From Dehalococcoidia bacterium (GTDB lineage Bacteria > Chloroflexota > Dehalococcoidia > GIF9 > UBA5629): a DNA stretch of 64,000 nt. Where the stretch lies: the NCBI GenBank assembly GCA_050011565.1, contig JBEKIW010000004.1:1-64000 (forward strand), in the 5' to 3' direction. Under the pieces are notes generated by a model. It had not been told where the DNA came from. It worked only from the letters and a program-made list of their open reading frames with translations, and searched no databases. This document shows, piece after piece, positions 1 to 52,951 of the stretch (positions within the stretch are counted from its first letter, which is position 1; every line of letters begins with the position of its first letter). The position numbers were made by a program, and so were the translations under genes.

Positions 1-725
1 TATTCGGAACCGCCTTCCGTCACGATCTCTTGATCCGTGGCAAACGGCATAATCATCTTCAGCGTGCTTTCGCCGGAATCATACGCGACGAGTGCACAGG
101 GGACCCCATCGACAACGCTGACCCCTTCCAGTTCTAATGTGACCTCGCCATTGCGGAAAACCGAACCTGGCTTAATCCCGGCACCCAGGTTGACCGGTGC
201 CGCGACAAAGGCCGCGGCATGGACAATTCTTTGACCGATAGCTTTGAGGTCCTGGATTCCCTTACCAAATCTCATCGGTCGTGCAAACACGTCATTGAAA
301 CTGTGGAAATCAATGAAATTATTATATATGGCATAACGAATCTCCACTGGAAGCATATTCCCCAGACTATCGGCGATATCCTCGAATTTACCGTGTGGAA
401 TGCCGAACATCGGTCCCCTCTCGTCCATCCCAGAAAGACTTGGATTGAACACGTAGGTCCAATCCCTGAGCGCAGGAATCGTCACGGCCGGTTCAGTATT
501 GATTTGCAACCCGAACTCCGGACATGTGTATTCATCTCCGTTTTTTCCCGACAGTGCCGCTGGAATGCAGCGGAGCTTGAGAATGTAAGTTTCGGTGCCG
601 GTACGCTTTCCATTGAAACCTATGTGGATGAACTGGGTTTCCATGTGGAAATGCTGGGACTCTGGTTTTCGCTCGGCGGAAAGGTCAAATGGACCTTTGA
701 GGTCTCGAATAAGGTGCTGCTTCAT
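1..725 (-). CDS. Hypothetical protein, truncated by the left window edge (not in ORF track)
   Basis: Minus-strand frame from ATG at 725 (MKQHLIRDLKGPFDLSAERKPESQHF...) has no stop before position 1; GAGG lies upstream. The + strand ORFs here are probably shadows. Confidence 0.7.
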   Translation of the reverse strand, partial: MKQHLIRDLKGPFDLSAERKPESQHFHMETQFIHIGFNGKRTGTETYILKLRCIPAALSGKNGDEYTCPEFGLQINTEPAVTIPALRDWTYVFNPSLSGMDERGPMFGIPHGKFEDIADSLGNMLPVEIRYAIYNNFIDFHSFNDVFARPMRFGKGIQDLKAIGQRIVHAAAFVAAPVNLGAGIKPGSVFRNGEVTLELEGVSVVDGVPCALVAYDSGESTLKMIMPFATDQEIVTEGGSE

Positions 726-6321: not shown

Positions 6322-6678
6322 TTGAGAAGACAAGAGAAAATTTTGCGAAAACAGAGGTCTGGCCGCTGGAAGGCATATCTAATAGGCATAGGGCTAGTAT
6401 TTGGAGCCACTATTATTGGCGAACTATTGAAAACCATTCCTTATTTTGACCCCAGCAATATGGACATGCTCTATCTTTTGTGTGTTGTTATATCTGCCTT
6501 TTACCTGGGAATTGGTCCATCTATAATGGTGTTGATTCTCAGCGTGCCCGCTTTTGATTTCTTTTTCCTGCTTCCACTCTATACATTAGCGGTAGCGAAT
6601 GAACAAGGTGCTGTCAACGTACTTCTTTTGTTTTTGGTGAGTATCGCAATCATTTCGCTATCCCCCCGGATTCGATAA
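6322..6678 (+). CDS. Stand-alone KdpD-like transmembrane domain (DUF4118-type)
   Basis: 4 TM helices, MLYLLCVV and AFDFFFLLPLYTL motifs. Confidence 0.7.
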   Translation: MRRQEKILRKQRSGRWKAYLIGIGLVFGATIIGELLKTIPYFDPSNMDMLYLLCVVISAFYLGIGPSIMVLILSVPAFDFFFLLPLYTLAVANEQGAVNVLLLFLVSIAIISLSPRIR

Positions 6679-6838
6679 ATAGGCAGGCAATTCTGTCTTA
6701 ACTTATTGCACGATTTAGCGGAATGTTCAGTCCTCTAGTTGGACTATCCATATAGTATAGTACCGAACACCAAATAATATGTGGGTCTTGACAGTCGGTA
6801 TATAATATCGAGTGAACCAGGCCTGTAACTTTTATAAA

Positions 6839-6914
6839 TAAGTGGGGGCAAAGACACAGCGTCCGTGAGGGGGCACTTGGGCGCTGCAGAGCCAATAGTG
6901 AAACCGACCACTTA
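6839..6914 (+). ncRNA. c-di-GMP-II-class riboswitch aptamer, variant
   Basis: P1 TAAGTGG/CCACTTA; kink-turn GGC-AAA-GA...GA-GCC; P3 CAGCGTCC/GGGCGCTG; loop GGGCACTT; 3' AATAGTGAAACCGACC matches class-II architecture. Confidence 0.8.
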
Positions 6915-6929
6915 GGTGGTCGGTTTTTT
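6901..6929 (+). terminator. Riboswitch expression-platform terminator
   Basis: AAACCGACCAC-TTAG-GTGGTCGGTTT plus T-tract; overlaps the aptamer 3' strand. Confidence 0.9.
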
Positions 6930-6996
6930 ATTATTATCACCAGGAAGAGACGCCGATGATTGCGCAGTGAAACACAGAAAGGGAGGTTATTTCACT

Positions 6997-9900
6997 ATGA
7001 TTTCTAAAATGAGGAAGATCAATAAGCGTGAATTAGCCCCTGTATTTAAAAAGGTTATCATATCTCACCTGGGCGAATTGACTCGTGATACAAGAACTGT
7101 CGGCGATATGATTAAATATCGTATTTACTATCATAACTCGACGACATTTCCGGCTGACATCATTATTACAGACAGATTGCCAGATGGACTCTCTCATGTT
7201 ACCGTATTTAACAATGGTAAATATGATAGGACGAAACGTATTGTAACATGGCGGGTGAAAAAATTGTCGCCCATGCAGGGCTCATACGTTGAGGTACAGG
7301 CCAGGATTGACTCTGATGGAGTAATAAGTAATCAAGCTTTCCTCGATAGCTTTGGGGCGCCTCAGAGGAAAACGAATATCGTAAAGACGAGGGTCTTGGT
7401 GCCGCCAAAACTGGGCTGGGTTCCATTTACCAAGGATAGCAAACCAGGAGAACCTGCGCGCTCTTACATGAAGGACGAAACCACCACCGGATTAACGGTG
7501 AATTTTGATATCAACGGCATGCATGTCCGCAAAGAAATACTCGATGGTGTAGCGTATCACCATTTATCCATTCCGGGCAGAGCAACGATGTTAGAAGTCG
7601 GGAAGCCCCAATTACCGATAGTGGGCCAGATTATCGAAGTGCCACATGGTGTGGACATCAATCCCATCATTGTGAAGAAAGAACCCATTACATTAGAAGG
7701 TTATAATGTCTACCCCACGCAGAAGCCGGAATATCTTGCTGCCAGTAACGTCAAACGCGCTTTCAAAATTGATAAAGTGACATATCTATCTGCTGCCACG
7801 TATCCATCCACGCCGGTGGCAATACAGGCAAAAGACATTGGTGTGATCCGTGGCCACCGGCTGGTATTTCTGAAGGTGTGCCCCCTGCAATATAACTTTA
7901 CCACCAGGAAGATGACGGCTTTTTCAAATATCGAGGTACGATTGGAATACGACCATCCTGCCCAAATTGAGGGGGTCGACAGAAGAATCGCATCTGCCCC
8001 TTTTGAGGCGTTGTTGCAATCATCCGTAATTAACTACAAGGCACCTACACGTACCTATAGTTGCGGTATTCCTCCGCCAGAACCAAGTGAATTAACCGGC
8101 TGTCACTATCTGATCCTCACTCATCCCGATTTTTATAATAAGGACCCATTGGTAAAATTTGCAAACTGGAAGCGGCGAAAAGGTCTCATCACAAAAGTGG
8201 TGGATGTGAGTACGATTCCTGGCGGCAATACAGCCGATGCGATCAAAACCTATATACGGAATGCGTATCATACTTGGTATCCCGCGCCAGCATATGTCTT
8301 GTTGATAGGAGATTCTAATTACATTCCCCCAAACGACGGCCTTCCTCATCCACAACATCTTGATTCTAATGGTAATGCGACACCGATCGCGACCGATATC
8401 TATTACGCCACCGTAGACGGTAATGACTATTTCTCCGATATTTTCCTGGGCCGTTGGTCGGTTGATAATGTCGCCCAGCTAGGTCATGTAGTCGACAAGA
8501 TTATCTATTACGAGAATGAGGAAGTCCAGGACGCTAAATTTTATCATGACACATCCCTGGTAACCGTTTTTATTGATGACAACTCCGACGGTAAGGAAGA
8601 TGATGGCTATTACACAATCGAGTTTGCTGAGGCAATCCGGACTTATCTAATTGGCCAAGGTTATGACGTTCAGCGCATCTATTGTCATAGTGGTAGCGCT
8701 CCGAAAGGTCCATTATGGTATCAGGATGGTACAGATCTACCTGATGAGTTGAAGTTACCCGGTTTCCCGTGGAGCGGAGGGACACAAGACATCATACAGG
8801 CTATTAACACGGGAAATTTTCTCATGACCTACAAGGGACATGGAAAGTGGTTTGGGTGGTCGAGTCCTTGGTTCATGAATGGTGACTCCTTATCCAATGT
8901 CGGGAAATTACCGGTCATATTCTCGTTGGCGTGTGAGACCGGCTGGTTTGACAACGAAATAGATAGGGGGATTCAACAAGCTCCCGGAGCCAATGAGGAA
9001 TGTTTTTGCGAGTCTTTGCTCAGAAAAGAATGGGCCGGTGCTGTGGCCGTGATCGGTGCCACTCGTGATGCACCGACACCAGATGAATTCATGATACTAG
9101 GCATTTACAAGGCTATCTGGCCTGATTTCAATCCTACGCCACCATCAGTGCCGCTTCCGCCCATGGATATAGCACCATTACTCCGCATGGGCCAAATACT
9201 CAATTTTTGCAAGATTTATATTGCCAACCTTTTGGGTCCTGGCACCGGGATGCAATCAGTGCAATCACTCTTCGAATTGTATAACCTCTTCGGCGATCCA
9301 GAGATGCCGATTTGGACGCGAGCTCCGGTCAGGCTGGCTGTGTACCATCCTGAGTCAATTGGTTCAACTGGAAAGCAGGATTTCATGGTCTCGGTAACAG
9401 ATCCGTATTCCGGTACGCCGGTCCAAGGCGCGACGGTCACTCTCACTCGTACTTTAACACCAGTCAGTGGTGGCAGCATTCCTCCGGAAGAAATAATACA
9501 GGTTAGTTACACCGACCCCGGGGGCATCGCTCTTTTTGCGGTAGACACAATTACCGATACTGAAATCCAAATCACGGCCTCGGCTCTTAACTACCTTCCG
9601 TATAAGGATACAATCAAGGTAACCGCGGGGGGAGCTGTGCTAAATCGCCTCGACCCTGACAATGGCGCAAAAGGTCAGCCCTTCTTGCTTGGCGGCCAGA
9701 ATTTCAGCAAGGAGAATGTAGATATCTACTTTGAAATATCGGGACAGAAAATTCTAGTAAAAACAATTGAAGCATCTGGCGGAGATTTTGGCCAGGTTGG
9801 TGCAGATGTTGAAATCGAGGTACCCTGGTCCGATCCGCTTGGGCCAGCGAATCTAATTGCCGTAGGCCAGAAATCCGGCCGGTGCGCCGTTCGCGTCTTT

Positions 9901-10638
9901 CATGTACGCAGTAAGAAACTTGTCGACCTATGGATCTATAGTCAGTGGGACCCGAATACGTGGATACTGAACAGTGGAGATTGTAACCCGATCTGGAACA
10001 ACCCGGATATTCGATTGTTCGAAGGCAACAATGAGGTGGATTCGAATAACTTGACAGTGCTGACGAAATATACGGTTAAGGCCGCGATCCATAACGGCAC
10101 CGGGGTTCAAGCTGATAACGCAAAAGTTGTCTTCTCCTGGGCTGATTTCGGTATAGGTGGCCCCTGGACCGAGTTCTATAGTACTGGTCTGGATGTAGGT
10201 CCCGCGGGTGCCACTGCTGAGGCGCCATTTACGCCCGAAGCTACCGGCCATATATGCATCCTAGTCGAGATCTATCATGTGGAAGACATATCCCCTTCAA
10301 ACAATGTGGGGCAAGAGAACCTCCATGTTGGGCCTACTAGCTCAGCCGCCATGGTCGCTTTTTGGGTCTCGAATCCAACACAAAACCCGGCTGCGGTTTT
10401 TATTGAAGTAAGGCAGGTGTTTCGGCCTGGTCAGGAAGGCGAAAAGGAGAAGGGGCCGTGGGTCACCAAAGTTATGCATCCAGATCCACAGGTGATCAAG
10501 CCTGGGGACAGTGCACGGGCGTTCCTCGTAGTCGATCCGGGCAAGGTTGAAACTGAAACCCCAGCAGAGTTCGCAATAACGGGTTTCATTGAAGGCAAGA
10601 TGATTGGAGGTGTTAATTTAACTATAACCTCAACATAG
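6997..10638 (+). CDS. Gingipain-like peptidase C25 with DUF11 domain, C25 propeptide and Ig-like C-terminal domains
   Basis: GKPQLP propeptide, YVLLIGD, TDIYY, FLGRW, catalytic YKGHG and SLACETG, YNLFGDPE; GGGAGG RBS before ATG 6997. Confidence 0.9.
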   Translation: MISKMRKINKRELAPVFKKVIISHLGELTRDTRTVGDMIKYRIYYHNSTTFPADIIITDRLPDGLSHVTVFNNGKYDRTKRIVTWRVKKLSPMQGSYVEVQARIDSDGVISNQAFLDSFGAPQRKTNIVKTRVLVPPKLGWVPFTKDSKPGEPARSYMKDETTTGLTVNFDINGMHVRKEILDGVAYHHLSIPGRATMLEVGKPQLPIVGQIIEVPHGVDINPIIVKKEPITLEGYNVYPTQKPEYLAASNVKRAFKIDKVTYLSAATYPSTPVAIQAKDIGVIRGHRLVFLKVCPLQYNFTTRKMTAFSNIEVRLEYDHPAQIEGVDRRIASAPFEALLQSSVINYKAPTRTYSCGIPPPEPSELTGCHYLILTHPDFYNKDPLVKFANWKRRKGLITKVVDVSTIPGGNTADAIKTYIRNAYHTWYPAPAYVLLIGDSNYIPPNDGLPHPQHLDSNGNATPIATDIYYATVDGNDYFSDIFLGRWSVDNVAQLGHVVDKIIYYENEEVQDAKFYHDTSLVTVFIDDNSDGKEDDGYYTIEFAEAIRTYLIGQGYDVQRIYCHSGSAPKGPLWYQDGTDLPDELKLPGFPWSGGTQDIIQAINTGNFLMTYKGHGKWFGWSSPWFMNGDSLSNVGKLPVIFSLACETGWFDNEIDRGIQQAPGANEECFCESLLRKEWAGAVAVIGATRDAPTPDEFMILGIYKAIWPDFNPTPPSVPLPPMDIAPLLRMGQILNFCKIYIANLLGPGTGMQSVQSLFELYNLFGDPEMPIWTRAPVRLAVYHPESIGSTGKQDFMVSVTDPYSGTPVQGATVTLTRTLTPVSGGSIPPEEIIQVSYTDPGGIALFAVDTITDTEIQITASALNYLPYKDTIKVTAGGAVLNRLDPDNGAKGQPFLLGGQNFSKENVDIYFEISGQKILVKTIEASGGDFGQVGADVEIEVPWSDPLGPANLIAVGQKSGRCAVRVFHVRSKKLVDLWIYSQWDPNTWILNSGDCNPIWNNPDIRLFEGNNEVDSNNLTVLTKYTVKAAIHNGTGVQADNAKVVFSWADFGIGGPWTEFYSTGLDVGPAGATAEAPFTPEATGHICILVEIYHVEDISPSNNVGQENLHVGPTSSAAMVAFWVSNPTQNPAAVFIEVRQVFRPGQEGEKEKGPWVTKVMHPDPQVIKPGDSARAFLVVDPGKVETETPAEFAITGFIEGKMIGGVNLTITST

Positions 10639-11130: not shown

Positions 11131-14100
11131 ATGAAATGCCCAAAGTGCCAGGCCGAAAATCGTGAAGGGGTTAAGTTTTGTGAGCAGTGTGGGGACAAGA
11201 TGGAATCATTTTGTCCCAACTGCGGAGTGAATATCCCCTTGGGTAAGAAGTTCTGTGGCGACTGTGGCCACGACTTAGCCATTCCCACGACACCACCATC
11301 CAAAGCCATCTCCTTTGAAGAAAAGCTGGAGAAGCTCCAGCGCTACCTGCCTGGAGGACTGACCGAAAAGATACTGGCCCAGAGAGGAAAAATCGAAGGT
11401 GAGCACAGACAGGTCACCGTCATGTTCTGCGACCTGAAGGGATTCACCCCTCTTTCCGAGAAGCTAGGCGAGGAGAAAGTGTACTCCATAATGGATGAAC
11501 TCTTTGAGATGATGATTCATAAGGTACACGAGTATGGCGGCACGGTCAACAAGGGGACCGGTGACGGTATCATGGCTTTATTCGGGGCACCCATCGCCGT
11601 GGAGGATGCCCCGCAGCGGGCCATCCGTTCTGCCCTGGCCATTCAGCGGGAAATGGCCAAATTCAGCGGCACGCTAAAGGGAGAGACCGAGGTTCCTCCG
11701 CTAAAGATGCGTATAGGCATCAATACCGGCCCAGTTGTCGTTGGCACGCTGGGTAACGACCTCCGGGTGGAGTTCACGGCGATGGGGGACACGGTGAACC
11801 TGGCTTCCAGGATGGAAGGATTGGCGGAGCCGGGCACAGTCTATGTCACCGAAGATACCTTCAAGCTCACCGAGGGCTTCTTCCGGTTTGAGGCGCTGGG
11901 TGAGAGACAGGTCAAGGGTAAGGAACAACCGGTCAAGGCGTACCGTGTTATTGCTCCCAGCACCATGAGGACGAGGTTTGATGTCAGCGCCGAGCGGGGA
12001 CTGACTCCCTTTGTCGGCCGGCAGAGAGAGCTTGAGCTATTACTCGATGGCTTTGAGCGTGCCAGGGCAGGCAAGGGGCAAGCTTTCTCCATCATGGGCG
12101 AGGCCGGTGTAGGCAAATCACGGCTGCTATATGAGTTCAGGAAGGCAATCGGCAGCGAGAACGTGACCTTTCTGGAGGGCAAATGCCTGTCGTACATACG
12201 GGGTGTAGCCTATCATCCCATCATAGATATACTGAAGTCGAACTTTGGTATCAGGGAAGACGACGAGGACTACCAGGTCAGGGATAAGGTCAAGCAGGGC
12301 CTGAAGCAATTAAGGGTAGACGAAGCCTCCACTCTCCCTTACCTACTGGAGCTGCTGGGTGTCAAGGATAGCGGCATCGACAAGATACCCATGAGCCCGG
12401 AAGGCAAGAAAGACCGGATGATGGAGGCGGTAAAGCGAATCTGCCTTAAAGGTTCAGAGATACGGCCACTGATAATGGCCATTGAGGACCTGCACTGGAC
12501 GGACAAAAGCTCTGAGGAGGCGATGAAGTATCTGCTGGAGAGCATACCGGGGTCCAGGGTACTCCTGATATTCACCTACCGGCCCGAGTTCGTGCACACC
12601 TGGGGCACCAGGTCATACCACAGCCAGGTGACCCTGAACCGGCTGTCCAACCGGGAGAGCCTGGCCATGCTGGCCTATCTCCTGGGCACGGAGCAGGTAG
12701 AGACACAGCTTCAGGAGCTCGTATTGCAGAAGACGGAAGGTATTCCCTTTTTCATCGAGGAGTTCATAACGTCACTTAAAGACCTCAAGATAATTGATAA
12801 AAAGGACGGTCTCTACCATCTGACCAGAGATATTCACGATGTAACCATACCGAGCACTATTCAGGATGTCATCATGGCCAGGGTGGACTCCCTGCCCGAG
12901 GCCGCCAGGGGGGTGCTTCAGACAGGCTCAGCCATCGAGAGGGAGTTCAGCCACGAGCTGATACAGAGGGTGATGGGCATACCAGGGCAGGAATTGTTGT
13001 CTCACCTGTCGGCATTAAAGGACTCTGAGCTTCTGTACGAGAGGGGGATATATCCTCAGTCGACCTATATTTTCAGGCACGCACTGACACGCGAGGTAGT
13101 GTATGACTCGATACTGGAGGCGAGGAAGAAGAGGCTTCACTTAGAGATAGGCGATGCCATCGAGGACATATATAAAGAAAACCTGGATGAGCATTATGAG
13201 TTACTGGCTGAGCATTATGTTGCGGGCGAGGGCTACGAGAAAGGGGCTGAGTATTGCCGGCTCGCGGCAAGGAAGGTTGAGAAAGCCGGCTCTCTTAATG
13301 ATGCGATTGCGTATGGTGAGAAAAGAGTAGCCTGTCTTGAGAGACTACCCGCGACGGAGGAAGTGGACAAGAAGATAATCGACGCCAGAACGACCCTTGG
13401 GCTTTATTACCTTCAGCTAAGTTATCATGTTGAGGCCAAAGAGGCTGTTGAGCCGGTAGTTGAGCTGGCTTTGAAGCGTGGTTATAAAAGGAGGATTGCC
13501 CAGATATATACCATAATAGGGGCATATAGTCATACGGTTGAGGAGGATTACCCCGCGGCCTTCAAATACCTAGGGGAGGCTTTGCAGCTCTCGGAAGAGT
13601 TGAACGATCTTCCTTCCTTGTTTTTTTCAAGTTTCCGGTTGGGATGGGCCCTTGCTGACAACTGTGAATTTGAAAAAGGCCTTTATCATTCGGAAAGGGC
13701 TTTGGAGATCAATGTAGCGGCAAATACCCTCTGGGGTATATCAAGGGTCAAAAGCAATATAGCCATGCGTGTTTATCATTATCAGGGAAAGGTTGATCTT
13801 GGCTATCAGACCAGCGGTGAGGCGGTACGGCTAGCCGAAGAGAGCGGCGATACAGGGTCAAAGGCATTGGCGTACACCAGCCATGGTGCATTGTGTTTTT
13901 GCAAGGGGTTTTTGGATGAAGCCGAGGTACAGCTCTTGAAGGCGATCGATTTTTGTGATAGCATCAACTTCTTTTTGTGGCAGGCTTCGGCAAGTTCCTT
14001 TTTGGGCGAGACCTACTTTGAGAAGGGAAAATATCAAGAATTCCAGGACTGTTACAACAAAGCAATTTCGGTGTTGAAACGCGGAAGGGTTTTGCCCTCT

Positions 14101-14535
14101 TTCCTTAACTTATATAGAATGGGTTTGGCCAGGGCGAAAGTGATGAGTAACGAAAAGGACATAGACTTGAAGGATATATTCGAGTCTTACCATGAGAATA
14201 GGCAAAAGGTGTGTGGAGGGTTGATGGCAAGATATATCGGTGAGATACTACTCAATATTGATGACCGGCACATGAATGAGGCGGAGGAATGGGTCAAGAA
14301 GGCCATCGAAGCCGATAAGAGGAACAGCATGAGGTTCTACTTGGGAAGGGATTATGCCTCTTATGCCGAGCTGCTGAAACGAAAAGGCGACCCGCCCGGA
14401 GCTAAAGAGAAACTGAACAAGGCGATAGAAATCTACAAAGAATGCGGTGCCGACGGCTGGCTGAAAAAGGCCCAGGAGGACCTGGCAGCGATGGAAAAGC
14501 CTGGGCGGAAGCGACCTAAGCGGGCGAAAGGTTAG
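11131..14535 (+). CDS. Double zinc ribbon + class III adenylate/guanylate cyclase + STAND AAA ATPase + TPR protein
   Basis: 4x CxxC; VMFCDLKGFT, GDGIMALFG, GDTVNLASRME; Walker A GEAGVGKS; IEDLHW; C-terminal TPRs. Confidence 0.92.
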   Translation: MKCPKCQAENREGVKFCEQCGDKMESFCPNCGVNIPLGKKFCGDCGHDLAIPTTPPSKAISFEEKLEKLQRYLPGGLTEKILAQRGKIEGEHRQVTVMFCDLKGFTPLSEKLGEEKVYSIMDELFEMMIHKVHEYGGTVNKGTGDGIMALFGAPIAVEDAPQRAIRSALAIQREMAKFSGTLKGETEVPPLKMRIGINTGPVVVGTLGNDLRVEFTAMGDTVNLASRMEGLAEPGTVYVTEDTFKLTEGFFRFEALGERQVKGKEQPVKAYRVIAPSTMRTRFDVSAERGLTPFVGRQRELELLLDGFERARAGKGQAFSIMGEAGVGKSRLLYEFRKAIGSENVTFLEGKCLSYIRGVAYHPIIDILKSNFGIREDDEDYQVRDKVKQGLKQLRVDEASTLPYLLELLGVKDSGIDKIPMSPEGKKDRMMEAVKRICLKGSEIRPLIMAIEDLHWTDKSSEEAMKYLLESIPGSRVLLIFTYRPEFVHTWGTRSYHSQVTLNRLSNRESLAMLAYLLGTEQVETQLQELVLQKTEGIPFFIEEFITSLKDLKIIDKKDGLYHLTRDIHDVTIPSTIQDVIMARVDSLPEAARGVLQTGSAIEREFSHELIQRVMGIPGQELLSHLSALKDSELLYERGIYPQSTYIFRHALTREVVYDSILEARKKRLHLEIGDAIEDIYKENLDEHYELLAEHYVAGEGYEKGAEYCRLAARKVEKAGSLNDAIAYGEKRVACLERLPATEEVDKKIIDARTTLGLYYLQLSYHVEAKEAVEPVVELALKRGYKRRIAQIYTIIGAYSHTVEEDYPAAFKYLGEALQLSEELNDLPSLFFSSFRLGWALADNCEFEKGLYHSERALEINVAANTLWGISRVKSNIAMRVYHYQGKVDLGYQTSGEAVRLAEESGDTGSKALAYTSHGALCFCKGFLDEAEVQLLKAIDFCDSINFFLWQASASSFLGETYFEKGKYQEFQDCYNKAISVLKRGRVLPSFLNLYRMGLARAKVMSNEKDIDLKDIFESYHENRQKVCGGLMARYIGEILLNIDDRHMNEAEEWVKKAIEADKRNSMRFYLGRDYASYAELLKRKGDPPGAKEKLNKAIEIYKECGADGWLKKAQEDLAAMEKPGRKRPKRAKG

Positions 14536-17779: not shown

Positions 17780-18109
17780 GTGGACAAGGTTACAGAGGAG
17801 TTGATTAGGAACTTGTTCCAGATACCGCAGGTTGAACTTTTGACAGTCTGGAGCTTCCCAGGTTGGCATGGCTGCCCCCTTGCTACGGCAGAGAGGGGTA
17901 TTACAAACTGCCCCTTGGCATTCGACCGCAGGGGGGTGCCGGCTGAGCCACAGCCCTGGATGAAGGGAGCATGTGAGGATGAATCCTGGCGAGAGCGATG
18001 GTGCCAGATCCTAGGGTTCTGCCGGCAATGCCAGGGAAAACCAGGGCCCTCAGAAGATGAGAGGAGTCGACTGGGGGAAATCCGGAGAGCGCTATTCAAA
18101 ACGAGGTAG
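17780..18109 (+). CDS. Cys/Trp-rich hypothetical protein
   Basis: GGAGG RBS, six Cys including CRQC; lies between the HTH and recombinase genes. Confidence 0.55.
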   Translation: MDKVTEELIRNLFQIPQVELLTVWSFPGWHGCPLATAERGITNCPLAFDRRGVPAEPQPWMKGACEDESWRERWCQILGFCRQCQGKPGPSEDERSRLGEIRRALFKTR

Positions 18110-18113
18110 ACAG

Positions 18114-19994
18114 ATGAATGAGACGAAGGAAGTGATAAGCCGGGAACAGCTATACCGTTACACGGAGGAGGCAGCAAAGGCAGCAGGTTACGAGGAGGGC
18201 TTCGGGCTGAAAGGCTGTGACCTTACCAAGCCTATCTGGTGGGCGGCTTACGTCCGGCAGAGTCTAGAGGAGCAGGCGCAAAACAATCGCATACCTGAGT
18301 ATCTGCTTACCTGCGCACGCATGGCGAAGCAGAGAGCCGTAACCGTGCCGCGGGAATATATTGTTGTTGACCATGAGAGCAGTGAATATCTTGGCCGGAA
18401 GAATATGATGTTCCTCAGGAAGGAGCTAATAGCCAAGCGCAAGATTCAGGGAGTGCTTATACCTTTGCAGGGACGGCTAACAATGGATCCGGGGCAGCAG
18501 ATCATCTTCGAGAGAGAATGCACGCACTACAACGTGGAATTTGTCTTCGGCGATGTGCCCAGCGGAGCGGATTGGGCCAGTAGCACCAGCCGACTGATTA
18601 TGGCTCAGGCCAATGCCCTCAGGGTCAAAACAAACAGAGACAGCGCCAGGGCGGGCAACATAGGAAGAGTACTCAAAGGCATGGTGCCGGCAAGCCGTGC
18701 CACTTACGGCTATCGCTACAAGGCGGACAGGGAGATAGCCTCTGGCGGCAAAGTCATCATCAAGCGGGCGTGGTGGGAACTTGACGAGTTTGATCCTGAT
18801 GGTCAACTCCTCTATGAGAGTCCAGCCTGGGTCGTGATTCAGATCTTTACCTGGGTTGGTACTGAAGGACGCAGCCTGTTCTGGGTAGCCAACAAACTGA
18901 ATAGCATGAGTATCAAAGCCCCAGATGGTGGCAAATGGTCGCCGGCCAGGGTTTCTGCCATCGTCCGTCATAACTGTTACACAGGGACTCACTATTATAA
19001 CGCCAATGCCAGGGTGCCAAACCCCGATAGACCTTTAGTTGACATAACTGCAGAGGTCAAAAGGACGCTTCTGAGGCCTAAACCTAAGGGCGAATGGGTA
19101 GAATTTAAGATTCCAGCCCTGATAAGTGAAGAATTATGGCAGAAAGCCAACGCTTATGTTGCTCGCAGGGGCAGGGGAAGAGGCAAGCAGGGGAAAACGA
19201 TCGAGGCGTTACTTCGCAATCGCATATATTGCCCCAGGTGTGGCAAGCCAATGGTGGTTAGGCGTGCGGGCCACCTGAATGGTGTCTACTACCACTGCTC
19301 CAGATACTTCAAGTCTTGGGTTGAGAACCCCTGCAATTACAGGAAATTCGTCCCTGGTGCCTGGGATCAGCTGGTTTGGCAGGATATTTGCTCGTGGCTT
19401 AGGACTGATTCCTGGGTTGAGCAACAGCTTTCCTCAGAGCAATTGCAGGACGAGAACATGGAAAAGCTAATCAGACTTCAGGTGCTGAAGATATCGCAGG
19501 CGGAGGCCAGAATTACTAAGGTTCAAGAGGGCTTCGAGGCTGGCCTTTACAACTTAGACGAAGCCAAGAGGCGGATTGACGAACACCGGGCAACCACAGC
19601 GAAAGCGCAAAGAGAGATTCAACGACTCAGAGAAAGAATGAAGGACTCGGTTTCTTGTACCACTGACCTTGAGGCGCTGAGAGAAGAATTGAAGGTACTA
19701 CGGGATAGGAATCTGGATGAGGCCACCTTTGAGGAGAAGCTAGACATCGTGTCCAAGCTAGGAATTGCGGTTCATCCTTCCGAAGAACTAGAGTCGATGA
19801 AAGTGATTTGCCAGCTGAACTTCGAGCATCTGCAAGCCAATGAGGGAACCGGGCGAATGGATTCAAGCGAAATACAAACTAACGGTGACAGTGAGTCGGC
19901 GACCGAGTGCCGAAAAATTATGTTTGGTAGGCCGTACAGGGATCGAACCTGTGACACCCTGATTAAAAGTCAGGTGCTCTACCAACTGAGCTAA
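18114..19994 (+). CDS. Large serine recombinase (integrase)
   Basis: Catalytic AYVRQS, YGY recombinase domain, PALISEELW, zinc ribbon CPRCG..YYHC..C, coiled coil; C-terminus encoded antisense to tRNA-Lys. Confidence 0.92.
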   Translation: MNETKEVISREQLYRYTEEAAKAAGYEEGFGLKGCDLTKPIWWAAYVRQSLEEQAQNNRIPEYLLTCARMAKQRAVTVPREYIVVDHESSEYLGRKNMMFLRKELIAKRKIQGVLIPLQGRLTMDPGQQIIFERECTHYNVEFVFGDVPSGADWASSTSRLIMAQANALRVKTNRDSARAGNIGRVLKGMVPASRATYGYRYKADREIASGGKVIIKRAWWELDEFDPDGQLLYESPAWVVIQIFTWVGTEGRSLFWVANKLNSMSIKAPDGGKWSPARVSAIVRHNCYTGTHYYNANARVPNPDRPLVDITAEVKRTLLRPKPKGEWVEFKIPALISEELWQKANAYVARRGRGRGKQGKTIEALLRNRIYCPRCGKPMVVRRAGHLNGVYYHCSRYFKSWVENPCNYRKFVPGAWDQLVWQDICSWLRTDSWVEQQLSSEQLQDENMEKLIRLQVLKISQAEARITKVQEGFEAGLYNLDEAKRRIDEHRATTAKAQREIQRLRERMKDSVSCTTDLEALREELKVLRDRNLDEATFEEKLDIVSKLGIAVHPSEELESMKVICQLNFEHLQANEGTGRMDSSEIQTNGDSESATECRKIMFGRPYRDRTCDTLIKSQVLYQLS

Positions 19995-20000
19995 CGGCCC
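19925..20000 (-). tRNA. tRNA-Lys(TTT)
   Basis: GGGCCGTTAGCTCAGTTGGTAGAGCACCTGAC-T-TTT-AATCAGGGTGTCACAGGTTCGATCCCTGTACGGCCTACCA, 76 nt. Confidence 0.97.
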
Positions 20001-20801: not shown

Positions 20802-20877
20802 TGGAGCGGGTGAGCAGATTCGAACTGCCGACGTCTTGCTTGGGAAGCAAGCATTCTGACCACTGAATTACACCCGC
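20802..20877 (-). tRNA. tRNA-Gly(CCC)
   Basis: GCGGGTGTAATTCAGTGGTCAGAATGCTTGCTT-CCC-AAGCAAGACGTCGGCAGTTCGAATCTGCTCACCCGCTCCA. Confidence 0.96.
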
Positions 20878-43928: not shown

Positions 43929-44274
43929 GGGGGCGTGAGGCTTCGACAGTGGGAGGCCTACAGGATAGCAGGTCGAGGTGCCATCCACCTCGTTAAACAG
44001 GTGGCAAAAGACAACTGCCGAAGCAGTTCCAATTGCAGCCTAATTAGGTTGCACATTCAACCTGACCTCACCCCGATGGGTTGGGATTGGGTGACGAAAT
44101 GTCGGGGTGCTCCAACCTCGATGTCGATAGAGGTTGGCTAAGAATCATCGACTGGCCTGGCTATTATCGGTCAGCAGAGCCTAGCTAGGTGAGATAAATG
44201 AGCTGACTAAACCTGTAGTATGTTCTGGCAACCTTCTTCTGGACGGGGAGTTCAACCCTCCCCCGCCTCCACCA
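43929..44274 (+). ncRNA. ssrA: tmRNA; tag (A)AEAVPIAA at 44017-44043
   Basis: GGGGGCG..TTCGAC start, ACAACT-GCC resume codon, CGCCTCCACCA end, directly after smpB. Confidence 0.95.
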
Positions 44275-52854: not shown

Positions 52855-52951
52855 TGGCGGGAGCGTATGGGGGTCGAACCCACCGGAGACACTATCAATG
52901 CCTCCCGACGGATTTGAAGTCCGCGAAGCCCACCGGGACTCAAACGCTCCC
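52855..52951 (-). tRNA. selC: tRNA-Sec(TCA)
   Basis: 8-bp acceptor GGGAGCGT/ACGCTCCC, GGACT-TCA-AATCC, long variable arm, GCCA end; 97 nt. Confidence 0.96.

Follow-up and report, generated by a model that had tools for sequence, protein, structure and literature searches.

We found that a C25 (gingipain-like) cysteine peptidase gene of a Dehalococcoidia bacterium is preceded by an aptamer of the c-di-GMP-II class, and this arrangement probably (we put it at about 0.8) constitutes a transcriptional ON riboswitch through which the peptidase would be made only at high c-di-GMP. The riboswitch class is known and the gene association is new; a literature search for an association between c-di-GMP-II and a C25 peptidase did not find it. 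The identity of the ligand and the in vivo direction of regulation are inferred. All coordinates refer to the window, the whole 64,000-nucleotide stretch of DNA that was analysed, and are collected in Table 1.

Table 1. Elements of the riboswitch leader and the gene behind it, with RF01786 model positions in parentheses
Feature	Coordinates	Strand	Basis or remark
c-di-GMP-II aptamer (RF01786, positions 1-84)	6835..6918	+	Rfam match; one of six genome copies
P1 5′ strand (5-11)	6839..6845	+	pairs with 6908-6914
G12, junction purine, pocket floor (A13 in 3Q3Z)	6846	+	consensus A
P2 5′ strand (13-15)	6847..6849	+	pairs with 6891-6893
P2 5′ strand (13-15) and kink-turn bulge (16-21, including G19, A20)	6847..6855	+	partners 6888-6893
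P3 hairpin bearing the pseudoknot loop (23-29 with 46-52)	6857..6886	+	RF01786 alignment
G36, replacing conserved U36 (U37 in 3Q3Z, pocket base)	6870	+	75-aptamer alignment
Pseudoknot 5′ strand, G37 G38 G39 C40 A41 C42 U43	6871..6877	+	covariation
3′ pocket strand, A60, A61, U62, A63 G64 U65 G66 (pseudoknot), A67, A68, A69, C70 C71, G72, A73	6894..6907	+	
Intrinsic terminator	6900..6929	+	5′ arm 6900-6911, loop 6912-6915, 3′ arm 6916-6927, U run 6924-6929
Ribosome-binding site GGGAGG	6981..6986	+	10 nt before ATG, from sequence
C25 (gingipain-like) cysteine peptidase gene, 1213 aa	6997..10638	+	Pfam domains, catalytic pair

A whole-window Rfam scan matched the aptamer to RF01786 with 56.8 bits against a gathering score of 53.5 (E = 6.3e-10), covering all model positions without gaps, and a rescan of the 351 nt around it gave E = 3.4e-12. 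The margin over the cut-off is only 3.3 bits; a chance match was rejected because of the E-value and because the aptamer belongs to a family of copies. Positions are given in the RF01786 model (window base = 6834 + model position), which run one lower than the numbers of 3Q3Z, the c-di-GMP-II RNA of Clostridium acetobutylicum. Roles of the pocket bases were taken from secondary sources (PMC13715770 and the excerpted text of PMC7288161) and mapped onto Rfam positions.

The window aptamer has the same P1, P2, kink-turn, P3, pseudoknot and ligand-reading bases as 3Q3Z. The original prediction of a class II aptamer in the 5′ UTR of the peptidase held for every element at its predicted place. For comparison we used a set of 75 aptamers found in 32 genomes of the bacterium's order (86 rows minus 11 rows scoring under 40 bits); c-di-GMP-II matches occurred in 35 of the order's 61 genomes. 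Across this set the P2, P3 and pseudoknot pairs were 87 to 100% standard with compensatory changes: P2 pairs in 70 to 75 of the 75, with compensatory pair types, and P3 pairs in 65 to 74 of the 75, with three to five pair types each. The inner P1 pairs (8-77 to 11-74) were standard in 53 to 74 of 73 to 75 aptamers, with several pair types. Pseudoknot pairs 40-66, 41-65, 42-64 and 43-63 covary (AU to GC at 41-65, CG to UA at 40-66 and UA to CG at 43-63 in relatives), and 37-71 and 38-70 are invariant G-C pairs in 75/75. All six are standard pairs in the window aptamer, in which the GGGCAC loop and the 3′ GUGAAACCGACC are both present and the kink-turn tandem G.A pairs G19.A56 and A20.G55 are kept; one mismatch, A22-C53, lies at the base of P3.

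The switch logic follows from the terminator. Its 5′ arm is built from positions 66-73 of the pocket and 74-77 of P1, and the 6900-6927 stem (12 bp with 6 G-C pairs, a loop of 4 and six U) has a predicted energy of -19.3 kcal/mol versus -6.2 for P1 alone; the minimum free energy fold of the full leader (103 nt, -40.0) contains the terminator and not P1. Because the terminator reuses the pocket and P1 bases, bound ligand should block it, giving an ON switch, and the proposed mutual exclusion of the aptamer's 3′ strand with a strong terminator was supported. The same overlap design was seen in 65 of the 75 related aptamers. In the proposed mechanism, leader bases 66-77 would pair with 6916-6927 when no ligand is present, and the resulting terminator and U run would stop transcription before the gene. 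With c-di-GMP bound, bases 66-77 would instead be engaged in the pocket, where A68 would read one guanine, A69 would intercalate and G72 would read the other, and also in the pseudoknot and P1; the terminator would then be blocked and RNA polymerase would enter the peptidase gene. No convincing sigma-70 promoter was found in 6679-6835; a TTGACA at 6788-6793 lies only 7 nt from a TATAAT at 6801-6806. The datasets listed as containing the sequence included no RNA dataset, and the DNA datasets were peat metagenomes.

The original prediction had singled out three substitutions, and relative to the Rfam consensus all three are real: A to G at position 12 (6846), G to A at 61 (6895) and C to A at 67 (6901). 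It had also placed the junction adenine in the ligand pocket, which agrees with A13 of 3Q3Z (PMC13715770; excerpt of PMC7288161). What was not supported was the suggestion that these changes set this copy apart as a variant for a different ligand. Within the order, G12 occurs in 56/75, A61 in 50/75 and A67 in 75/75 aptamers, and the genome's own six copies all carry G12 and A67; in the rest of the phylum, position 12 is A in 27/30. By the alignment, the lineage normally carries these odd bases, G12, A61 and A67, and also A73. The ligand-reading and ligand-stacking bases (A61, A69, A70 and G73 of 3Q3Z) are unchanged in the window as A60, A68, A69 and G72, with A60 as ceiling, A68 reading G-alpha, A69 intercalating and G72 reading G-beta (PMC13715770; PMC7288161, in excerpt); in the order they are present in 74/75, 74/75, 75/75 and 75/75, respectively. 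Since the odd bases are mostly normal for the lineage, a new ligand is unlikely, and we regard an altered ligand for the window aptamer as quite improbable. We rejected two simple accounts of the substitutions. Compensation between 39 and 67 does not apply: opposite an invariant A67, position 39 varies (63 U, 7 G, 4 C, 1 A). A U-A pair, although present in most copies, is not maintained, and the window has G opposite A. Strict covariation of 12 with 73 does not apply either (G/A 52, A/A 9, A/G 8, G/G 4), there being a tendency only, among relatives that are not independent.

The GAG and GCG variant classes invoked in the original prediction do exist in Rfam (RF03169 and RF03170; clan CL00127); they share the scaffold, and A67 is common to the window and the apparent GAG type. 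PMC5737381 gives no description of them in its main text. That the window aptamer belongs to one of these families seems hardly credible. With 49.4 bits it clears the GAG cut-off of 40, as do nearly all canonical aptamers of the order, but scores 7.4 bits below its canonical score there, and on the GCG model it reaches 41.0 bits, under the cut-off of 47.9. The sole aptamer of the order with G68, GUGAGACCG (G036), scores about equally on the GAG and canonical models (64.8 against 64.9), and a GAG score about equal to or above the canonical one was found at only three sites, this one and two in genome G058. The two G058 sites keep A68, so the higher GAG score there has another cause. From the scores and the one G036 sequence, the GAG type would appear to be defined by a G at the position of A68. 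The window aptamer, by comparison, keeps A68 and scores best on the canonical model, on which grounds membership was rejected.

A deviation that the original prediction did not flag, and which is rarer than the three it did, is the replacement of U36 by a purine. The excerpt of PMC7288161 lists 13 ligand-binding bases for 3Q3Z, and 3 of these 13 differ in the window: A13, U37 and C68 of 3Q3Z are replaced by G12, G36 and A67. Neither G36 and A68 nor G39 and A67 make a standard pair, and both juxtapositions adjoin the G-alpha site. Position 36 is U in 63/75 aptamers of the order (with A six times, G five times and C once) and in 29/30 of the rest of the phylum. The 11 purine-36 aptamers, the window's and 10 relatives, all lie in the window's genus; ten have the window's P1 and P3 sequences, and one in G007 is more divergent. 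U36 is likely the partner of the guanine-reading A68: the sole C36 among the 75 co-occurs with the sole G68, a coincidence that fits a 36-68 pair presenting the guanine-reading adenine. G36 marks a genus-level subtype and may tune affinity. Genes behind the subtype (EEP nucleases, Abhydrolase_10 hydrolases, small lipoproteins and the C25 protease) differ from those behind U36 copies. We looked for and rejected an orthologous locus for the window's subtype, as eight related aptamers sit in different contexts before different genes.

These observations bear on whether the purine-36 subtype has changed specificity, responding to another guanine-containing nucleotide (3′3′-cGAMP, pGpG or one not yet known) or only to much higher c-di-GMP. 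There would then be two tiers of class II switches, the second serving secreted hydrolases (nuclease, esterase, C25 protease) apart from the adhesin-like proteins of U36 copies. Besides the confinement to one genus, the listing of U37 of 3Q3Z among the ligand-binding bases (PMC7288161, excerpt), the C36/G68 coincidence and the separate gene set, this possibility draws on reports that one deletion in the class II pocket gives 2′3′-cGAMP binding and that replacing A-U by G-C in P2 alters the preference between cGAMP isomers about tenfold (PMC13715770). Against it, A60, A68, A69 and G72 are all unchanged, the 36-68 covariation rests on one sequence, and the canonical model gives the best score (56.8 bits versus 49.4 for GAG and 41.0 for GCG).

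The genome's enzymes argue in the same direction. Five GGDEF domains (145 to 183 bits) each have the GGDEF and GH..GD motifs, and the Asp in the GH..GD position is one that we take to mark canonical, non-Hypr enzymes; four HD-GYP proteins are also encoded. EAL, DAC and SMODS had no match in the genome (99.2% complete), so that of the GGDEF, DAC and CD-NTase genes considered in the original prediction the first were found and no DAC or SMODS match was, and no synthase for another cyclic dinucleotide was seen. We consider a purine-36 subclass with changed ligand preference or a much higher threshold unlikely. The check for other copies of the motif gave a total of six c-di-GMP-II copies in this 2.0-Mb genome, five of them above the cut-off; apart from the window's, they lie in front of genes for large CARDB, PKD, invasin-D3 and ice-binding/beta-helix proteins. 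A c-di-GMP-I search of the genome gave no match, as did the search's control.

The peptidase itself was supported as a clan CD protease, as had been proposed. Peptidase_C25 (PF01364) matched with E = 2.8e-61 and 208 bits and the propeptide (PF08126) with 45.7 bits, in the order DUF11 (31-118), Propeptide_C25 (167-326), Peptidase_C25 (371-771) and CarboxypepD_reg-like (799-880), followed by a conserved C-terminal region of unassigned family. H615 and C646 are invariant in 13/13 aligned sequences and align to the GHG and AC motifs of RgpB. The start codon is likely the ATG at 6997, not the GTG at 6916 of the program's open reading frame list. The protease may act outside the cell, although a signal peptide could not be recognised in it, nor in 8 of its 12 aligned homologues, which counts against that role. 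In line with the accessory region of the original prediction, no close homologue (E <= 1e-20) was found in 60 relatives, of which 4 have a more distant C25 domain, and the best homologues, 46 to 60% identical, are patchy across bacterial and archaeal MAGs. No foreign composition of the gene was seen (GC 0.43-0.50 versus 0.40-0.54 nearby). Homologue loci were obtained with an alignment query, a single-protein query having given none. An Rfam scan covering 40 of the 80 fetched C25 loci found c-di-GMP-II before 0/40, making the association a single case; in the other 40, mostly Bacteroidales, a regular expression for the GUGNAACCG motif alone was applied and no aptamer-like context was seen.

With no close homologue found in relatives, the protease gene could be a later arrival behind an older leader, and this is one reason to ask whether the aptamer is a decaying relic, with the terminator acting as a simple attenuator or belonging to the upstream DUF4118 ORF, and the protease escaping ligand control. 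The score close to the cut-off, the two non-standard juxtapositions beside the pocket and the A22/C53 mismatch would also fit decay. We nevertheless consider a relic very unlikely: 9 genomes of the genus retain the subtype and show compensatory P3 changes (such as G25-C50 to A-U, or A24-U51 to G-C), the ligand-reading bases and pseudoknot are all intact, and the overlap of the terminator with the pocket strand is exact.

Read as a c-di-GMP-responsive ON switch, the leader resembles several known systems. According to the excerpted text of PMC11477304, class II switches of C. difficile (CD2831, CD3246, cmrRST and the pilin operon) share a cell-surface gene theme, with adhesin and pilus genes under c-di-GMP-II, which matches the regulon of the window's genome; unlike in these switches, the gene regulated in the window is a C25 peptidase. 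The same excerpt describes a protease gene, PPEP-1/ZmpI, directly under a c-di-GMP riboswitch and near riboswitch-controlled adhesins. That system has a class I aptamer, OFF logic and a metalloprotease, whereas the window has a class II aptamer, predicted ON logic and a cysteine peptidase; given its OFF logic, PPEP-1/ZmpI is made at low c-di-GMP and releases adhesins. The gingipains RgpB and Kgp of Porphyromonas gingivalis have the Propeptide_C25 and Peptidase_C25 domains in common with the window peptidase, and H615/C646 align with the RgpB His/Cys pair, but the sequence similarity is weak and covers only part of the protein (E = 4e-18 over residues 372-564). The window peptidase also differs in its N-terminal DUF11, in its lack of a signal peptide, in that a search found no T9SS sorting domain, and in its environmental host genome. 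A parallel in arrangement is a Planctomycetia MAG locus (L064), in which a c-di-GMP-I-GGC riboswitch (1754-1827) lies directly upstream, 30 nt before a C25 ORF (1857-5162). There the aptamer is a GEMM-I variant (67.7 bits) and the protein is 33% identical; it is an independent parallel of a C25 gene behind a c-di-GMP-type riboswitch.

Taken together, a gingipain-family cysteine peptidase joins the genes directly under predicted c-di-GMP riboswitch control, with a parallel in another phylum, and a small peat-dwelling genome has six class II switches for surface and secreted proteins. The lineage provides natural mutants at three pocket positions, with a mostly-G pocket floor, a pseudoknot end pair that is U-A or unpaired and a subgroup lacking U36, and these could serve to test what determines affinity and selectivity in class II aptamers. 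A different ligand or threshold in the subgroup, if real, would mean that nature uses this one fold for tiered second-messenger control.

A scan of the 64-kb window against Rfam returned a single riboswitch, a match to the class II c-di-GMP aptamer model RF01786 that at 56.8 bits exceeded the gathering score of 53.5 (E 6.3e-10), as expected from the original prediction of a class II aptamer. Because all 84 of the 84 model positions aligned without gaps, each window base is 6834 plus the model position, and model positions are used hereafter. The same prediction proposed an ON switch in which the 3′ strand of the aptamer is exclusive with a strong terminator. The terminator 5′ arm starts at the final pseudoknot base and continues through A67, A68, A69, C70, C71, G72, and A73, of which A68 and G72 read the guanines and A69 intercalates, into the P1 3′ strand, taking its first four bases; since it is built of pocket, pseudoknot, and P1 bases, the aptamer and terminator folds are mutually exclusive. 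Energy computation gave -19.3 kcal/mol for the terminator hairpin, -6.2 for P1 alone, -15.8 for the nested aptamer fold, and -40.0 for the minimum free energy of the 103-nt leader, terminator included. The overlap and these energies support the ON logic: without ligand, termination would be the expected default state, and read-through would require tertiary structure stabilized by ligand. To search relatives for this design, we looked for a sequence complementary in reverse to the ACCGNC pocket strand, with no more than one mismatch, and a T run after it; 65 of the 75 related aptamers had the design downstream, and several of the other 10 missed it narrowly. Inspection of the sequence upstream of the aptamer pinned down no promoter. 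The sequence datasets with this DNA are peat metagenomes, and no RNA run is among them.

Features of the riboswitch, the protease gene, and other loci in the window
Feature	Position	Strand	Details	Source
DUF4118 ORF	6322-6678	+	118 aa	
c-di-GMP-II aptamer	6835-6918	+	RF01786	Rfam scan
P1	model 5-11 with 74-80	+		Rfam alignment
Junction base	model 12	+		Rfam alignment
P2	model 13-15 with 57-59	+		Rfam alignment
Kink-turn	G19.A56 and A20.G55	+		Rfam alignment
P3	model 23-29 with 46-52	+		Rfam alignment
P3 loop		+	GGGCAC	Rfam alignment
Aptamer 3′ strand		+	AAUAGUGAAACCGACC	Rfam alignment
Intrinsic terminator, overlaps aptamer	stem 6900-6927	+	12 pairs (6 G-C), loop of 4, six U	
Terminator 5′ arm	6900-6911	+	model 66-77	
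Ribosome-binding site	6981-6986	+	GGGAGG	Read from sequence
C25 peptidase ORF (P0001)	ATG 6997 to 10638	+	1213 aa	Pfam
P0001 C-terminal motif	~10234-10326	+	residues ~1080-1110	
Cyclase-domain ORF	11131-14535	+		
Large serine recombinase ORF	18057-19994	+		
tRNA	19928-20000	-		
tRNA	20805-20877	-		
tmRNA	43929-44274	+	148.9 bits	
Selenocysteine tRNA	52859-52951	-	72.1 bits	

We compared the pocket with that of the crystallized class II aptamer, 3Q3Z. There, A61 is the pocket ceiling, the sugar edge of A69 reads G-alpha, A70 intercalates, G73 reads G-beta, and A14-U60, the first P2 pair, stacks against the backbone of the ligand; P1 is closed by a non-canonical purine pair that serves as the floor, with A13 in 3Q3Z and A.G in the B. 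halodurans RNA (PMC13715770). PMC7288161 names A13, A14, U37, G39, U60, A61, C68, A69, A70, C71, C72, G73, and A74 as binding bases. The run A69 A70 C71 C72 G73 sets the 3Q3Z number at the Rfam position plus one. On this numbering, the window matches 3Q3Z at positions 38, 60, 68, 69, 70, 71, 72, and 73 but has G at 12, G at 36, and A at 67 as differences, while at 13-59 a compensated G-C replaces A-U, as in the Rfam consensus. The window pocket floor is still a purine pair, G12 with A73.

The three odd bases on which a possible other ligand had been suggested (A to G at 12, G to A at 61, and C to A at 67, relative to the consensus) are real, but they are typical of the lineage and not special to the window copy. 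The window organism's genome (2.0 Mb, 99.2% complete) holds other copies of the motif, with six RF01786 matches in total, five over the cut-off, and all six carry G12, A67, and A73. Matches occurred in 35 of 61 genomes (this one and 60 relatives in its order), and we fetched, aligned, and counted the 75 aptamers of at least 40 bits among the 86 listed, from 32 genomes. Position 12 was G in 56, A in 18, and U in 1; position 61 was A in 50 and G in 23; position 73 was A in 62, G in 12, and C in 1; and A67, A69, C70, C71, G72, G37, and G38 were each present in all 75, with A60 and A68 in 74 each, counts that describe the lineage and do not test it, as the relatives are not independent. A phylum sample from outside the order (30 aptamers within the fetched loci of 27 genomes, G203 left out) had A at position 12 in 27, G in 2, and C in 1, and at position 67 C in 17 and A in 13. 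Compared with this sample, G12 is a trait of the order, whereas A67 is common more widely. The 39-67 pair, G-C in canonical RNAs, is U-A in 63 of the 75; position 39 is otherwise G in 7 (the window among them), C in 4, and A in 1, so this end pair is not strictly kept in the lineage. Six of the 30 phylum-sample aptamers read GUGAACCCGAUC, with C for the intercalating adenine at 69 plus C39 and A67, a pocket change more radical than any in the window (examples are G133:C10:54422-54505, G177:C11:10413-10496, G076:C124:14692-14773, G088:C23:4377-4460, and G150:C3:295437-295520).

The original prediction missed G36, a further pocket deviation that marks a small subtype. Position 36 was U in 63 of the 75 aptamers of the order and 29 of 30 in the phylum sample. 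Of the 75, 11 have a purine there; ten of these 11, the window included, share the window P1 (AGUGG with CCACU) and P3 sequences and are spread over nine genomes of the window organism's genus; the eleventh, in G007, is more divergent (48.7 bits). Compensatory P3 changes within the subgroup show that it is under selection. The only C36 and the only G68 among the 75 occur together in one aptamer, G036:C3:120732-120816, which reads GUGAGACCG; their joint presence would fit a 36-68 pair. A review lists a base triple 'c-di-GMP.A-U' for 3Q3Z (PMC7583470).

We also asked about the variant families GAG (RF03169) and GCG (RF03170), whose models scored the window at 49.4 (cut-off 40) and 41.0 bits (cut-off 47.9). 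Membership in either was rejected, as the canonical score is the highest, the GCG score is below its cut-off, and the window has A68; by Rfam's own rule, the window aptamer is canonical. The GAG model about equaled or beat the canonical one at only three sites. One is the G036 aptamer (64.8 versus 64.9 bits), and the other two, in G058, keep A68, so something other than G68 accounts for the higher GAG score there. From the scores and G68 of this one G036 sequence we infer that G at 68 probably defines the GAG family, a definition absent from the main text of PMC5737381. Within this family of organisms, the G036 aptamer seems to be a GAG-type switch.

Domain searches of the window organism's genome found five strong GGDEF domains (145-183 bits), all with the GGDEF motif and GH..GD, and HD-GYP-type HD_5 domains in four proteins. 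The Asp in GH..GD would mark an ordinary diguanylate cyclase, as opposed to the cGAMP-making Hypr enzymes. EAL, DAC, and SMODS gave no match in this 99.2% complete genome, and the DAC search matched in 11 of 14 control genomes. Given five GGDEF domains and no DAC or SMODS, no cyclic dinucleotide other than c-di-GMP has a synthase in view. A c-di-GMP-I search of the genome gave no match, and its control likewise matched nowhere. A weak 'GGDEF' match came from the ORF next after the protease gene, which combines a double zinc ribbon, a class III adenylate/guanylate cyclase domain, an AAA_16 ATPase, and TPR repeats; we saw no sign linking this ORF to the riboswitch.

The gene behind the aptamer does encode a C25 peptidase, as first read. 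Pfam assigned DUF11, Propeptide_C25, Peptidase_C25 (E 2.8e-61), and, weakly, a CarboxypepD_reg-like domain. In an alignment of 13 family members, all 13 have H615 and C646, the residues that correspond to the GHG and AC motifs in gingipain R (4ief). Like 8 of 12 aligned homologues, P0001 is without a signal peptide; of the other four, three carry one and the last has a truncated N-terminus. Its C-terminal motif (T1083 G1084 H1085, C1087, H1094, E1096 D1097, N1103, G1105 Q1106 E1107 N1108, H1110), invariant in 13 homologues and matched by no Pfam family, may bind a metal or form a second active site. The best homologues are 46-60% identical and scattered across bacterial and archaeal metagenome bins. 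P0001 had no match at E <= 1e-20 in the 60 relatives; the C25 family model detected divergent domains in four of these, none on a contig with an RF01786 match. GC content does not mark the protease gene as foreign.

Other loci in the window were recorded separately. The ORF directly upstream of the riboswitch has a DUF4118 membrane domain only; DUF4118 usually heads sensor kinases, so this ORF may be a remnant. The end of the large serine recombinase ORF lies within a tRNA gene on the opposite strand, with a second tRNA beyond the overlap, and this region may be the edge of an integrated element. A tmRNA and a selenocysteine tRNA were also found.

Four of the genome's five other copies lie about 4 kb apart (contig C1, 276-289 kb; locus C1:271500-289500), each ahead of a large CARDB, PKD, or invasin-D3 protein or a small operon. 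The fifth, at 610 kb (C1:605500-611000), is sub-threshold (40.5 bits), is without a clear terminator, and precedes an ice-binding-like/beta-helix protein of at least 1496 aa; the other ORFs are of 1150, 341 (then 399 and 482), 1056, and 1177 aa, and domains across the five comprise CARDB, PKD, invasin-D3, fn3, and ice-binding/beta-helix. Eight subgroup relatives in other genomes of the genus, in mutually unrelated contexts, precede two EEP nucleases, two Abhydrolase_10 proteins, a CARDB lipoprotein, an Ig-like lipoprotein, and small unknown proteins. These genes follow the usual c-di-GMP theme, surface and secreted proteins. In C. difficile, according to PMC11477304, CD2831, CD3246, and pili are under class II switches and the PPEP-1 protease is under class I.

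Rfam scans found no c-di-GMP-II aptamer at the 40 most similar C25 loci from species representatives. On a contig of a Planctomycetia metagenome bin (L064), a C25 ORF (1857-5162) begins 30 nt past a c-di-GMP-I-GGC aptamer (1754-1827, 67.7 bits), so that a C25 gene is shared with the window but the cyclic-dinucleotide aptamer class is another. In the literature searched, we found no published riboswitch-gated C25 peptidase, and the papers listed there for riboswitches together with gingipains concerned P. gingivalis signaling only. L064 is an independent link from c-di-GMP riboswitch signaling to C25 peptidases, and the window element is predicted to be a genuine class II c-di-GMP ON riboswitch whose gene association is new.
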